Positions 58,984 to 62,915 of a stretch of DNA of 64,000 nt are shown piece after piece. This stretch comes from an uncultured archaeon. Lineage in GTDB: Archaea; Asgardarchaeota; Thorarchaeia; Thorarchaeales; Thorarchaeaceae. The stretch's first letter is position 1; each line of letters starts with the position of its first letter. The translations under genes were made by a program, and so were the position numbers. The DNA is taken from the NCBI GenBank assembly GCA_964458565.1, contig CAYWJO010000001.1:32001-96000 (forward strand). The letters are read 5' to 3'. The notes under the pieces are model-generated. The model was given only the letters and a program-made list of their open reading frames with translations. It made no database searches and was not told where the DNA came from.

Positions 58984-59790
58984 TTATTTCTGACAAGTCT
59001 GACAATAATTCGTTTTAAATCGATTCGATTTTGCCTCTGAAATTCTTCCTCCACACAATGGGCAAATACCTCCACCTTTTCCATGAATCATAAGAAAATC
59101 GCGTTTCTCTGAAGATAGCTCCTTAAGATTGTGATGTGAAACCAGTTCAGTGTATTTTTCAAGAACCTTCACCATTGAATGATAGAGACGAACAATCTCA
59201 CTCTCGCTAAGACTGGAACGACCTCGAAAAGGCATAATTCCTGCATAAAGAAGAATCTCATCAGCGTAAGCATTCCCAATTCCTTTTACGAATTTTTGAT
59301 TACGAAGTACGTTTTTGATTTGCCCCTGTCGTTGAACTAATCGCTTCTTGAAAATTTCTAAGGATAAGCCATTATCAAGTGCGGAGGGGCCACGTTCACA
59401 AAAGCCTGCGACATCCTCATAGCATCCCTTATCAACCAAATACACTCGACTCATTTGTTTTCGGTCGTTATAGAGCAAAGTACCGGATTCAGTGCGAAGT
59501 GTAAAGATAGTAGTCTTCATTGGTGGTTTTTGTTTATTTAAATATTGAAAGCGTCCTGTCAACATAGGATTGATTACAATCTCAAAACTATTGTCAATTG
59601 TCAGAATTATGAATTTTCCATCTGCTCGAAACGCTGTGAAACACATACCACGCGGTTTTCGTTCGAAGTCCGTAATCTCAATTCCATGGATGACAAGGTG
59701 ATTATGGACTTTTATCCATGATATAGTCTTACCAGCTAGTACTTCGCTCAATCGCATTGCTAATGCCTGAAGTTCAGGAAGCTCTGGCAG
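58984..59790 (-). CDS. Fpg/Nei family DNA glycosylase/AP lyase (CTG start)
   Basis: Upstream extension reads CTG-PELPELQALAMRL; GIGNAYADEIL H2TH motif; C-terminal CPLC...CQTCQ zinc finger. Confidence 0.92.
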   Translation of the reverse strand: MPELPELQALAMRLSEVLAGKTISWIKVHNHLVIHGIEITDFERKPRGMCFTAFRADGKFIILTIDNSFEIVINPMLTGRFQYLNKQKPPMKTTIFTLRTESGTLLYNDRKQMSRVYLVDKGCYEDVAGFCERGPSALDNGLSLEIFKKRLVQRQGQIKNVLRNQKFVKGIGNAYADEILLYAGIMPFRGRSSLSESEIVRLYHSMVKVLEKYTELVSHHNLKELSSEKRDFLMIHGKGGGICPLCGGRISEAKSNRFKTNYCQTCQK

Positions 59791-59897
59791 AGAATATCAC
59801 CTGGTACGACCTTTAGTTGAATGTCACATTTTTCCTCTTAAGAGTCACGTATTTTGTACACATAGAACTTAAGGCTAAATGATGCACTGAAAAAATC

Positions 59898-60500
59898 ATG
59901 ATCGACGAACCAGTTGTATTTCACATTCAAAAAGGACGATTAGTGAAGATGCCTGATCCGGGTGTATTTGGAAGAGGGGACTGCTATCTAATTGATGCAG
60001 GTCCCAAAATCTATCTGTGGATTGGACCCAACTCGAGTGTTGATGAGAAATTCCTAACAGCTGCATCCGCAGTTATGAAAGATACAGCTAGAAAAGGACA
60101 TGCGGATATTGATAGAATCGAGGGCGGGAATGAACCTGATGGATTCAAAGCACTGTTCGATGATTTCAGGCTGACAGATGAAGATACTGAAGGTATTCTC
60201 AAACATGTTCAATTGCAAAAGAAAGAATTCAAACTGTGGCGGGTACATCATGAAGGAGATGAAACATTCTTTGCGGAGGTGCCATTGAACAAGTCGAGTT
60301 TACATTCAGATGATGTCTACATATTGGATACGTGGGAGGACATCTTTGTATGGCGGGGAAAGGAAGCAAGTGCCAGGGAGAGATTTGATGCCACGATACT
60401 AGCACGACGCTACGATGCCGAGCGTGTAGGTGTACAGGAAATAGAACTTATCGAAGAGGGAGAAGAACCTCAAGAATTCATTGTTGCATTACTCGACTAA
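59898..60500 (+). CDS. Two-domain gelsolin-like actin regulator
   Basis: GDCYLID....IYLWIG..SS.DEK...EGGNEP..F and L.SDDVYILD...IFVWRG.EAS..E...EGEEP.EF. Confidence 0.9.
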   Translation: MIDEPVVFHIQKGRLVKMPDPGVFGRGDCYLIDAGPKIYLWIGPNSSVDEKFLTAASAVMKDTARKGHADIDRIEGGNEPDGFKALFDDFRLTDEDTEGILKHVQLQKKEFKLWRVHHEGDETFFAEVPLNKSSLHSDDVYILDTWEDIFVWRGKEASARERFDATILARRYDAERVGVQEIELIEEGEEPQEFIVALLD

Positions 60501-60509
60501 ACTAAAGAT

Positions 60510-61949
60510 TCAGACCATTCTGAAGTGCCCAGGGCGTGGTTCGAAAACCACGCCATCATCTTTCATTTTCCCAAGCTCCCTCGCTGCAATATGTGTGGCA
60601 ACACCTGCTTCCTCAGCTATCTCTTTTATAGTGGGACCTAGAGACCCACTCTTCCCAGAATCAAGTCTTTTAATTGAGCGTAGTATTTTTGTGTTGTATT
60701 TGTAAGTTGGGTGCTCCTCACCCCAATCTTTCGCGGTTTCTGCTCGTAATGATGTTATCTCAATGTATTCACGTAAAGCTGGTTCGAGTATACTATCCCA
60801 TTCCTTTTTGATATCCTTGGCAGTCACACTCGCTCTCCATCCAGCCCTAGCAGTAGATCGTGCTAGACGAAGTGTACTAAGAGGTCTGCCAAATACATCA
60901 GCATCTAGCAAGTTCCCACGGGTAAGTACATCAGCTCTGAGATCAAAGCTATCTCTGAGATGTTCAAGACGCTCTATCACATGAGCGGTCCCATTATCTA
61001 CACTCTTCTGTGAAACGGTAGGTGAAAGCATTTGGAATGTAATAGCAGATTTGAGAATAGGGAGTCTTAACTCTCTAACATCAGTCCGTTCAATCCAAAA
61101 ATCCTCAGTGGTTAATGCCAGAGGAATGTCAGGGAGAGCAGCTGTGTCTGTATCAGTTAAACTACTAAGAGATACTTCTCGAAACCCGGAAGGATCCCTG
61201 CGTTGAACGCATAACATATCCATCTTCTTCTTGCTTATTTGTCCGACATCAAGACGCCAAATTTTGGGTATATTGACACGCATTCCTCGTACTGCACGGG
61301 TTTTCCAGCGAGTTGAGCGAAGTGAAGGAGGGAGGATTTCCCTCATGAATCTGAGAAGGCGTTTCACTTGAGGTTTTGAAGCTAGCGCTTGAATTCCAGC
61401 CGTGAGACCACCAACACTTTCAAGGTATGGAGGACTTGAAATGTATAGTCGTGCAAAAACACGTTTGCTACTCTCAGCCATTCCTACATGTTCAAAAAGC
61501 ATGCTTGATAATTCTCTGAGATTGAGGGGGGGTTTCATCTCAGAGAGGAACTCTAATTTCTGCGACTCTATTTTTTCAGCCAGGATAGTCCTAGTCACCT
61601 TTTGAGTACGTTCAAGTTGTTGAGGTGCCGCGATATTACGTCCGTATACCTCAATCATATCCCCCTCTTCAGGAAACATTGTCTCATCAGGCATGTAAAC
61701 AAAAATACCCTCTAGTAACCAAGGACTAGGAGTTAGTAGAATGATAGATTTGTTTCTTGTATGTCGCACAAAGCCTCTATATCTATAGTAGGGACCTCGA
61801 ACATGTTCTTCAAATTGATTAAGGAGCAGCCGCTCCCAATGAGTGAATTCAGTTCCCGTACCTCTATCAAAAATATCACTGACAGCAACAGCATCACCAA
61901 GCCGGTCTCGGGTAGTCATATATTTCTCTATGAGATCACGTGCATCCAT
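60510..61949 (-). CDS. Hypothetical protein resembling a degenerate MCM helicase (OB fold, inactive AAA+, winged helix)
   Basis: P..GD.IEV.G, LLRFMREILP, PLSTLRLARSTARA....VT..DI, C-terminal GVVFEPRPGHFRMV; no Walker A/B. Confidence 0.6.
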   Translation of the reverse strand: MDARDLIEKYMTTRDRLGDAVAVSDIFDRGTGTEFTHWERLLLNQFEEHVRGPYYRYRGFVRHTRNKSIILLTPSPWLLEGIFVYMPDETMFPEEGDMIEVYGRNIAAPQQLERTQKVTRTILAEKIESQKLEFLSEMKPPLNLRELSSMLFEHVGMAESSKRVFARLYISSPPYLESVGGLTAGIQALASKPQVKRLLRFMREILPPSLRSTRWKTRAVRGMRVNIPKIWRLDVGQISKKKMDMLCVQRRDPSGFREVSLSSLTDTDTAALPDIPLALTTEDFWIERTDVRELRLPILKSAITFQMLSPTVSQKSVDNGTAHVIERLEHLRDSFDLRADVLTRGNLLDADVFGRPLSTLRLARSTARAGWRASVTAKDIKKEWDSILEPALREYIEITSLRAETAKDWGEEHPTYKYNTKILRSIKRLDSGKSGSLGPTIKEIAEEAGVATHIAARELGKMKDDGVVFEPRPGHFRMV

Positions 61950-61952
61950 GCT

Positions 61953-62915
61953 TCAAACATCCCCACTCGGATTCTTTAGATACTCTTTATAGGCTCGGGG
62001 ATATCTTTCACCAAGCTCTTCTATTGCTGGAATGCGTTCACTGTAGGGAATATAATGGGAACCAAGTTCTGTTCTCTTCAGTTCTGCATCAATAATCCGT
62101 TTCATTCTACGATTGATTTCAAACCCAATGAAATGTCTCCAATTTGCTTTAGCTGCAACTGCAGTTGTTCCATTTCCCATGAATGGATCCAATACAATAT
62201 CACCAGGTCTGGAAGAATAGTCGATACAGCGCTCTACAACATCTAATGGTAGTTTCGTTCCATTTTTCGTTTCACCAGCACGATACTTCCGTTTAACGGT
62301 CCAGACATCTTCTGGGTAATGCTCTAACTTATTAAAAAAGTACTCAGCTGTGTCTTTCACAAGAAGTAGAACATGGTAATGACTGGTCACGAATTTTCTT
62401 TGTGTGAAAACACCAAAAGGATAATGCCAAATTATGTGATTTAGAATGGAAAGGCCAGCTTTGCGGGCTCCATTGAGAACGGATTCTAGATTAGTCCACC
62501 CACTAAAAATGTAGACGGATCCATCATCTCTAAGAATTCTGGGAATTTCAGCAATCCAATCCCTTGTGAAAAACGTGTACGATCCATTAGCTTCTTCATA
62601 TCCTTCGACTACCAACGATTCATCTCGGTTGTAGACACTACTCTTTCCATCGAAATCGATCCCAAAAGGAGGGTCAGCAATAACAAGGTTGATTGAATTT
62701 GATGAGAACCGACGCATTCCTTGGATACAGTCTTCGTATAAGATTGAATCAAGTGCGGTTGCATCAGATGGATTGTTCGTATCCATGAAAAGCTGTGTTG
62801 CTTCGGATGTTGTCCAATCATGTGTAGGGTGGAAGTAAAACTCAGCAAGATTGGGGATATATTTTCGAGTGCGTTTTTTTCGCGGTTCGAGAGGTATATC
62901 ATCATCAACGGTCAT
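61953..62915 (-). CDS. Beta-class N4-C/N6-A DNA methyltransferase (orphan)
   Basis: DPPF catalytic motif precedes DPFMGNGTT SAM-binding motif; GFEI. Confidence 0.93.
   Translation of the reverse strand: MTVDDDIPLEPRKKRTRKYIPNLAEFYFHPTHDWTTSEATQLFMDTNNPSDATALDSILYEDCIQGMRRFSSNSINLVIADPPFGIDFDGKSSVYNRDESLVVEGYEEANGSYTFFTRDWIAEIPRILRDDGSVYIFSGWTNLESVLNGARKAGLSILNHIIWHYPFGVFTQRKFVTSHYHVLLLVKDTAEYFFNKLEHYPEDVWTVKRKYRAGETKNGTKLPLDVVERCIDYSSRPGDIVLDPFMGNGTTAVAAKANWRHFIGFEINRRMKRIIDAELKRTELGSHYIPYSERIPAIEELGERYPRAYKEYLKNPSGDV

Follow-up and report, generated by a model that had tools for sequence, protein, structure and literature searches.

A conserved Thorarchaeota protein is very probably an ATPase-dead MCM paralogue and a candidate non-motor partner of the MCM helicase

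Archaeal MCM is usually treated as a simple homohexamer. Among the non-catalytic relatives and binders of MCM in eukaryotes, MCM-BP replaces MCM2 or chaperones MCMs, and MCMDC2 takes part in meiotic recombination. Closer to the case described here, Methanopyrus kandleri has MkaMCM2 (PDB 3f8t; Bae et al. 2009, cited in PMC2933578 and PMC4359371), described as an MCM homologue that is inactive, carries natural deletions within its sequence and lacks a conserved Walker A motif (PMC2933578). A 2025 survey of the Asgard replisome lists MCM among mostly single-copy genes and leaves a dead paralogue unmentioned (PMC12680538). Here we analyze a 64,000-nucleotide stretch of DNA from an uncultured archaeon of the Thorarchaeaceae (assembly GCA_964458565.1, contig CAYWJO010000001.1, positions 32,001 to 96,000; hereafter the window), in which an uninterrupted open reading frame (ORF) on the minus strand at 60510-61949 encodes a protein of 479 amino acids that we call the pseudo-MCM. 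This protein is very probably a dead MCM paralogue whose closest relatives are the canonical archaeal MCMs and whose closest precedent is MkaMCM2, and our full-text literature searches found no description of its family.

The gene and the parts of its product are located in the window as follows, with the basis of each assignment in brackets:

60510..61949, minus strand: whole gene of the probable ATPase-dead MCM paralogue, 479 amino acids plus stop codon (ORF call, homologues, and the ratio of nonsynonymous to synonymous substitution rates, dN/dS)
61815..61949, minus strand: N-terminal extension, residues 1-45, at the place of the MCM helical subdomain A (family alignment and model)
61557..61814, minus strand: compact OB fold, residues 46-131, without a zinc-finger insertion (AlphaFold model, VIA alignments)
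61080..61532, minus strand: shortened AAA+-like alpha/beta core, residues 140-290, with no ATPase motifs (structural alignment, motif scan)
61335..61403, minus strand: former P-loop site, residues 183-205 (secondary structure of the model)
60720..61076, minus strand: AAA+ lid, residues 292-410 (hhalign to the MCM lid)
60513..60701, minus strand: C-terminal MCM-type winged helix, residues 417-479 (profile match to 2m45, model)

The ORF has no family in Pfam or NCBIfam. Searched as a single sequence against the PDB with phmmer, it found one match only, an archaeal MCM (8x7t; residues 359-479, E = 0.005), and a profile built from 47 diverse family members, the set on which all family-wide counts below are based, matched 8x7t, SsoMCM 4fdg and the nuclear magnetic resonance structure of the SsoMCM winged helix, 2m45, at E-values of 1.4e-6, 2e-6 and 3.3e-6, with MCM8 next. 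Aligned by hhalign to 16 intein-free Asgard MCMs drawn from genomes, the family profile gave a probability of 95.3% (E = 2.2e-8) over family residues 296-476 and MCM residues 483-687, a span corresponding to the lid and the winged helix, and distant family members additionally show weak Pfam matches to MCM_C, MCM_WH_arc and WHD_MCM8. Nothing significant was obtained by hhalign for the N-terminal, OB and core parts (E = 0.3-0.5), the best local core match pairing the helix KRLLRFMREILP with the MCM helix after Walker A at a non-significant E of 0.53, and Pfam MCM_OB does not match the ORF. An earlier note, made from the sequence of the window, had proposed a dead MCM paralogue on the strength of short landmark peptides; all of the peptides it quoted are present in the translation and in order, but its OB and P-loop matches are not significant at the level of sequence and draw their support from the fold only.

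That fold was predicted with AlphaFold, where a shallow alignment of Thorarchaeota sequences alone gave a poor model (predicted local confidence, pLDDT, of 54), which we replaced with a run on the 47-sequence alignment (pLDDT 85.6, pTM 0.80). The top 50 Foldseek matches of this model in the PDB, a comparison with MCM that had been suggested beforehand, are all MCM chains (E about 1e-13, 410-560 alignment columns), and VIA-align superposes it on MCM chains with Z-scores of 17-20 over about 300-370 residues, the match beginning at model residue 44-46 (equivalent to SsoMCM 106-108, where the OB fold starts) and ending near residue 398, or for some chains at 479. Taken by itself, the AAA+ tier superposes on MCM7 (8q6p_7) at Z 18.0 and a root-mean-square deviation (rmsd) of 3.7 A over 224 residues. 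In an unbiased scan of 48,161 representative chains, 11 MCM chains came first (Z 13.6-17.2, including MCM8/9 and MkaMCM2), ahead of the closest AAA+ kin of MCM, the helix-2-insert-clade ATPases RavA (11.8), a MoxR-like ATPase (10.2) and BchI (9.6), and then of generic winged helices. The protein is thus an MCM derivative and not simply some AAA+ protein.

MCM-like domains cover the whole model. The OB fold has five strands with pLDDT of about 85-92, the winged helix reaches 82-88, and the N-terminal extension, at 56-84, is the less confident part; at the former P-loop site, strand beta1 (183-188) is followed by a short loop and then by the helix that begins KRLLRFMREILP. The arrangement of OB fold, AAA+-like core, lid and winged helix in MCM order, which had been predicted from the landmarks, is thus recovered by hhalign, Foldseek and VIA. 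The OB plus AAA+ architecture, whose absence, or replacement by an endonuclease fold, the earlier note had named as decisive against its proposal, is present, and no nuclease is found among the best structural matches in Foldseek, VIA or the unbiased scan, PD-(D/E)xK and HNH motifs not having been searched for.

Against this background of likeness, the motifs on which an MCM motor depends are missing. Walker A (G-x4-GK[ST]) occurs in 0 of 47 family members, and the loop columns at the former P-loop site vary within the family; no conserved hydrophobic-strand D[DE] or hhhhDE motif that would represent Walker B is found at the expected strand (231-236) across the 47; and no zinc CxxC pair exists in the OB region of any of them, or anywhere in the window protein. 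The absence of Walker A, Walker B and zinc finger claimed for this one gene therefore extends to 47 of 47 members. A 45-residue extension replaces the MCM helical subdomain A (roughly 100 amino acids), and the alpha/beta core is about 150 residues long vs. about 195 in MCM. At the level of secondary structure, helix 240-248 and strand 258-265 of the model are joined by a short loop, with no hairpin, at the place of the MCM presensor-1 hairpin. By strand order, which is how the placement was made, the spot of the arginine finger SRFD is occupied by x-[S/P]273-D274-x-P276, with D274 kept in 46 of 47 members and Arg or Lys below 50% at every column from 266 to 273. One catalytic-site position is kept: in the hhalign alignment, residue 355, which is Lys or Arg in 46 of 47, is matched to the Arg that never varies in the MCM motif PITARQLE, that is, sensor 2 at the start of the lid helix, and MCM sensor 2 acts in trans (PMC4619765). 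Since Walker A and Walker B are absent across the family, the whole family appears from its motifs to be ATPase-dead, and the loss appears old; lacking these and, by strand order, the arginine finger, the pseudo-MCM should be unable to bind or hydrolyse ATP in the MCM way and, on this sequence evidence, would not be a motor. Profile, fold and motif tests together thus bear out the proposal of a dead MCM paralogue.

Relative to canonical archaeal MCMs (SsoMCM 4fdg/6mii, 8x7t, and the P. furiosus AAA+ structure 4r7z), the pseudo-MCM shares the domain order, the lid and winged-helix sequence, the fold and the basic residue at the sensor-2 position, but it is much shorter (about 479 vs. about 690 amino acids) and is without helical subdomain A, zinc finger, Walker A, Walker B and, by strand order, arginine finger, with a core about 45 residues shorter and no predicted presensor-1 hairpin. 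It carries motifs of its own instead, namely SSP...GG, E258-x-S260, D274-x-P276 and an N-terminal R-x-x-G-x-E. In a scan of the whole genome with PF00493, the ORF was not matched, whereas an intein-bearing MCM and a third AAA+ gene were.

That intein-bearing gene, the true MCM of the genome, is a 1228-amino-acid open frame on another contig (C5, about 92938-95199; loci L001, L002), in which about 1.5 kilobases (kb), presumably one large intein, interrupt the MCM domain close to the Walker A region. Many other Asgard MCMs have one to several such splits, with open frames of up to about 2000 amino acids.

MkaMCM2 is likewise a shortened archaeal MCM homologue, and 3f8t aligns with our model at Z 16.1 (rmsd 6.5 A, 288 residues), which is no better than the match of active MCMs; nor was a sequence link detected, MkaMCM2 being absent from the 60 listed of the 91 PDB matches that the family profile gave. 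To our knowledge, MkaMCM2 is confined to one lineage. The pseudo-MCM family, unlike it, spans Asgard archaea and Thermoproteota (Thor, Odin, Bathyarchaeota, Methanomethylicia, Nitrosopumilaceae). The likeness to MCM-BP and MCMDC2 that had been suggested stands as a parallel in concept, that of an ATPase-motif-free protein of the MCM world acting on MCM complexes, while homology to either was not detected with Pfam MCM_bind (PF09739), which does not match the ORF at E-values up to 1; an MCM_bind cluster appeared in an ESM Atlas feature search with a score of 0.82, which serves as a lead only.

The family is widespread and constrained in the lineage of the window. Close homologues, of about 479 amino acids and 53-76% identity and including those at 54-58%, are named by their sources as hypothetical proteins of Thorarchaeota, which, with a gelsolin-repeat gene adjacent, fits the Asgard origin that had been proposed for this DNA. 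When whole genomes from the window's own GTDB family were searched with a profile, every one of those sampled, 43 of 43 at first and then 76 of 76, had a full-length copy; most genomes have one copy, and the frame is intact in nearly all of the 76. Because dN/dS is 0.09-0.11 (in pairs with unsaturated synonymous divergence), we conclude that the gene is functional and under strong purifying selection. Seven columns are invariant in the 47 diverse members (G59, G103, P173, G180, G181, E258 and R368), persisting across about 20% identity, and another eleven (R29, P74, P93, S171, S260, D274, P276, P310, G354, P356 and S358) are kept in at least 90%. Arranged by domain, the conserved positions form a family motif R29-x-x-G32-x-E34 in the N-terminal extension, followed by F46; G59, P74, P93 and G103 in the OB fold; S171, P173, G180, G181, E258, S260, D274 and P276 in the core; and G354-[K/R]355-P356-x-S358 plus R368 in the lid.

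Beyond this family of genomes, an exhaustive phmmer search found distant full-length relatives of 440-490 amino acids at 17-27% identity, from sources named Odinarchaeota, Methanomethylicaceae, Bathyarchaeota, Asgardarchaeia, and Nitrosotalea or Nitrosopumilaceae. Within the Asgard phylum, one further family has full-length copies in 3 of 3 genomes, and three more families have one in a single genome each, the remaining Asgard hits being C-termini of true MCMs. In the ESM Atlas, the nearest clusters (score 0.96) number three, all of them archaeal and unannotated, with 81-464 members and with Methanobacteriota as the most frequent source, so this family or a sister family may also occur in Euryarchaeota. 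No fused or longer forms of the family were found, which is weak evidence of their absence. We also observed that the copies in two Asgard-binned genomes (L064 in G199, L065 in G031) are 65-67% identical to one from Thermoproteota (L070 in G533) and only about 24% identical to the Thorarchaeota form, an identity across phyla that points to horizontal transfer or bin contamination.

Gene order in two distant lineages places the pseudo-MCM beside the replicative helicase genes. In one Nitrosopumilaceae genome (L054), the pseudo-MCM gene is preceded by a divergent gene for the RFC small subunit and followed by GINS, MCM and Hel308, the MCM of this operon being the only one found in that genome, and the order RFC, pseudo-MCM, GINS, MCM, Hel308 appears again in two genomes of another Thermoproteota order (L068, L069), in whose lineage the pseudo-MCM stop and GINS start codons abut as TAGATG. 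Identity between the two operon lineages is 24% for the pseudo-MCM, 42% for MCM, 49% for RFC and 40% for Hel308; with pseudo-MCMs only 24% and MCMs 42% identical, the link to the helicase operon is either very old or has arisen twice.

We also modelled the pseudo-MCM together with MCM, as the earlier note had suggested. One intein-free Thorarchaeota genome supplied both chains, residues 105-615 of its MCM and its pseudo-MCM, and each chain was given an alignment of its own. The pair reached an ipSAE of 0.67, compared with 0.16 for the best of three controls, and thereby passed a mark attained in calibration by 58 of 80 solved complexes and by 2 of 110 mismatched pairs, counts that are only rough here because custom alignments were used. 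Three runs had at least 65% of contacts in common, with partner pLDDT of at least 77. The confidently predicted contacts join the N-terminal motif and OB fold of the pseudo-MCM, rather than mainly the flat AAA+ faces, to four stretches of MCM (element names after PMC4619765; all from the docking model):

MCM 187-189: region of the allosteric communication loop
MCM 373-376: before the helix-2 insert
MCM 410-435: helix after Walker B and presensor-1 hairpin
MCM 466-471: next to the arginine finger

Contact residues R28, G31, F45 and P73 of the docked copy correspond to R29, G32, F46 and P74 of the window protein, and the most confident contacts are those of the N-terminal extension, where the R-x-x-G motif is predicted to touch the presensor-1 hairpin of MCM and the helix that follows Walker B. 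The docking model supports binding to MCM, within the limits of a prediction.

Given the place in the helicase operon of two deep lineages, the basic residue kept at the trans-acting sensor-2 position, the replication and repair neighbours and the docking result, the explanation we favour is that of a pseudo-ATPase MCM paralogue working as a non-motor partner of the MCM or CMG helicase, a reading for which we consider the case evenly poised; that it acts by binding MCM directly we would put just short of that. In such a mechanism, the pseudo-MCM would use its conserved N-terminal motif and its OB fold to bind an MCM subunit close to where the N-terminal tier meets the ATPase tier. That junction contains the allosteric communication loop and the presensor-1 hairpin, together with the arginine-finger face and the base of the helix-2 insert. 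So placed, the pseudo-MCM could tune, hold or escort MCM (during assembly, loading, braking or parking), and its winged helix may contact DNA or another replication factor. The proposal that it caps, loads or unloads MCM rings is plausible, with indirect support from the operon position and the docking result. A more specific version, in which the pseudo-MCM would be a regulated subunit or escort of the archaeal CMG that docks at the allosteric junction, or sits in the ring and makes a dead ATP site, is possible but doubtful.

The genes that flank the pseudo-MCM in the window bear on this question, and the two nearest are located as follows:

61953..62915, minus strand: beta-class N6/N4 DNA methyltransferase, upstream (PF01555, E 2.6e-36)
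59898-60500, plus strand: gelsolin-repeat protein of 200 amino acids with two repeats (PF00626, E 6e-30)

Three nucleotides separate the methyltransferase stop codon from the pseudo-MCM start codon. Across 20 Thorarchaeota loci, the common order is iron-sulfur (FeS) protein, methyltransferase, pseudo-MCM gene, gelsolin; the methyltransferase precedes the pseudo-MCM gene in all 20, at a distance of about 1.2 kb in two of them, and stands beside none of the 13 family loci outside Thorarchaeota, so the methyltransferase is a neighbour in Thorarchaeota only. No nuclease gene lies near the methyltransferase at 61953-62915. The gelsolin-repeat gene, a eukaryote-like Asgard signature, is convergent with the pseudo-MCM gene and syntenic in most of the Thorarchaeota loci examined. 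Beyond it lies an Fpg/Nei glycosylase gene, called at 58984-59757 (minus strand), whose called ATG would remove the catalytic N-terminus; at 59757-59805 (minus strand), the frame upstream of that ATG reads L-PELPEL right after a stop codon, and translation therefore probably starts at a non-ATG codon, exposing Pro2.

Outside Thorarchaeota, neighbours are varied. Seven Nitrosopumilaceae loci have almost no neighbours in common, with only L057 and L058, whose copies are 98% identical, sharing one flanking ORF, and the neighbours of several of them have no informative families. One of these seven, also counted among the 13 non-Thorarchaeota loci, is L053 (genome G302, flagged unpublished), where the family member has unshared neighbours and no adjacent methyltransferase, and where MCM is located elsewhere in the genome. 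A family-B DNA polymerase gene is convergent with the family gene in L061, and a UvrD-like helicase gene adjoins it in L064 and L070, whose copies are 65% identical.

Several of our observations weigh against a partnership with the helicase. In the window's own lineage, the gene stands beside a methyltransferase, not beside mcm or gins, and, as noted above, likeness to MCM in the N-terminal, OB and core parts is not significant at the sequence level. Residues of the predicted interface are no more conserved than the rest (0.38 vs. 0.42), and, because MCM-MCM complexes have already been solved, the docking result may partly reflect the model's memory of such interfaces, that is, likeness rather than binding. 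In Thermoproteota, moreover, the family was found in just 6 of 301 sampled genomes, and in one order in 4 of 81, as three variants at 25-35% identity; being rare and varied in its neighbours outside Thorarchaeota, it looks more like an accessory gene than a core part of the replisome. A DDE transposase gene beside the family gene in L071 and a GmrSD restriction gene beside it in L055 point in the same direction. These last features, with the nearly unshared neighbours of the Nitrosopumilaceae loci, are what one would expect if the pseudo-MCM were an accessory gene from or against mobile elements, a decoy MCM that captures or blocks the helicase of the host or of the element and that spread horizontally in Thermoproteota and became fixed in Thorarchaeota; archaeal mobile elements, reportedly (Krupovic et al. 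2010), often carry MCM genes. We regard this as quite improbable, since in the window's own family the gene is present in every sampled genome, mostly as one copy, with synteny conserved in 20 loci and under purifying selection, and since the order RFC, pseudo-MCM, GINS, MCM, Hel308 is common to lineages whose MCMs are 42% identical, which fits old vertical inheritance and loss. Two short-pattern scans of a viral contig collection, a weak form of evidence, found no relative, and no integrase was found among the flanking ORFs scanned with Pfam, which were only part of them.

A dead MCM paralogue might also never touch MCM, existing as a monomer or in a ring of its own and serving as a DNA-binding scaffold in repair or DNA modification, with OB fold and winged helix recruiting partners such as the methyltransferase (in Thorarchaeota), Hel308 or a UvrD-like helicase to certain DNA structures. 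The invariable methyltransferase with its 3-nucleotide spacer in the window, the Fpg/Nei gene close by and the UvrD-like neighbours would suit such a role, as would the winged helix, which in the unbiased structure scan resembles many DNA-binding winged helices, and the inactive M. kandleri MCM homologue was crystallised as a monomer (PMC4359371, PMC4619765). Yet the methyltransferase link is confined to one family and is explained by shared descent, the two UvrD-linked copies are similar enough to count as one event, and this reading leaves unexplained why the gene repeatedly heads the GINS-MCM operon and why the residue at the trans-acting sensor-2 position is kept, so that we consider this alternative unlikely, though a serious one. 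Finally, the lack of catalytic motifs and the place directly behind a DNA methyltransferase could be taken to indicate a functionless decaying relic or a restriction endonuclease partner of that methyltransferase. A dN/dS of about 0.1, a frame intact in nearly all genomes and seven invariant columns in so divergent a family speak against a relic, and the MCM fold, with no nuclease among the best structural matches, against an endonuclease, making either extremely improbable; the idea of a restriction enzyme was dropped, no nuclease fold having been seen and the methyltransferase link stopping at Thorarchaeota. As a separate observation, the neighbour in L055, from one Nitrosopumilus genome (L055:6889-9612, minus strand), is a protein of 907 amino acids with EVE, GmrSD N-terminal and Schlafen/AlbA_2 domains, and looks like a restriction system aimed at modified DNA.

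If the pseudo-MCM is indeed a regulated subunit or escort of the archaeal CMG, it would be an archaeal counterpart of the asymmetry and the accessory factors (MCM-BP-like escorts, loaders and brakes) so far regarded as eukaryotic inventions, and it would be older than the split between Asgard archaea and Thermoproteota. The family gives the archaeal replisome a candidate component for regulation or escort and is an independent case of the pseudo-enzyme logic known from eukaryotic replication factors, in a tractable system of two or three soluble proteins with which to ask how non-catalytic MCM relatives control the assembly or activity of the helicase.

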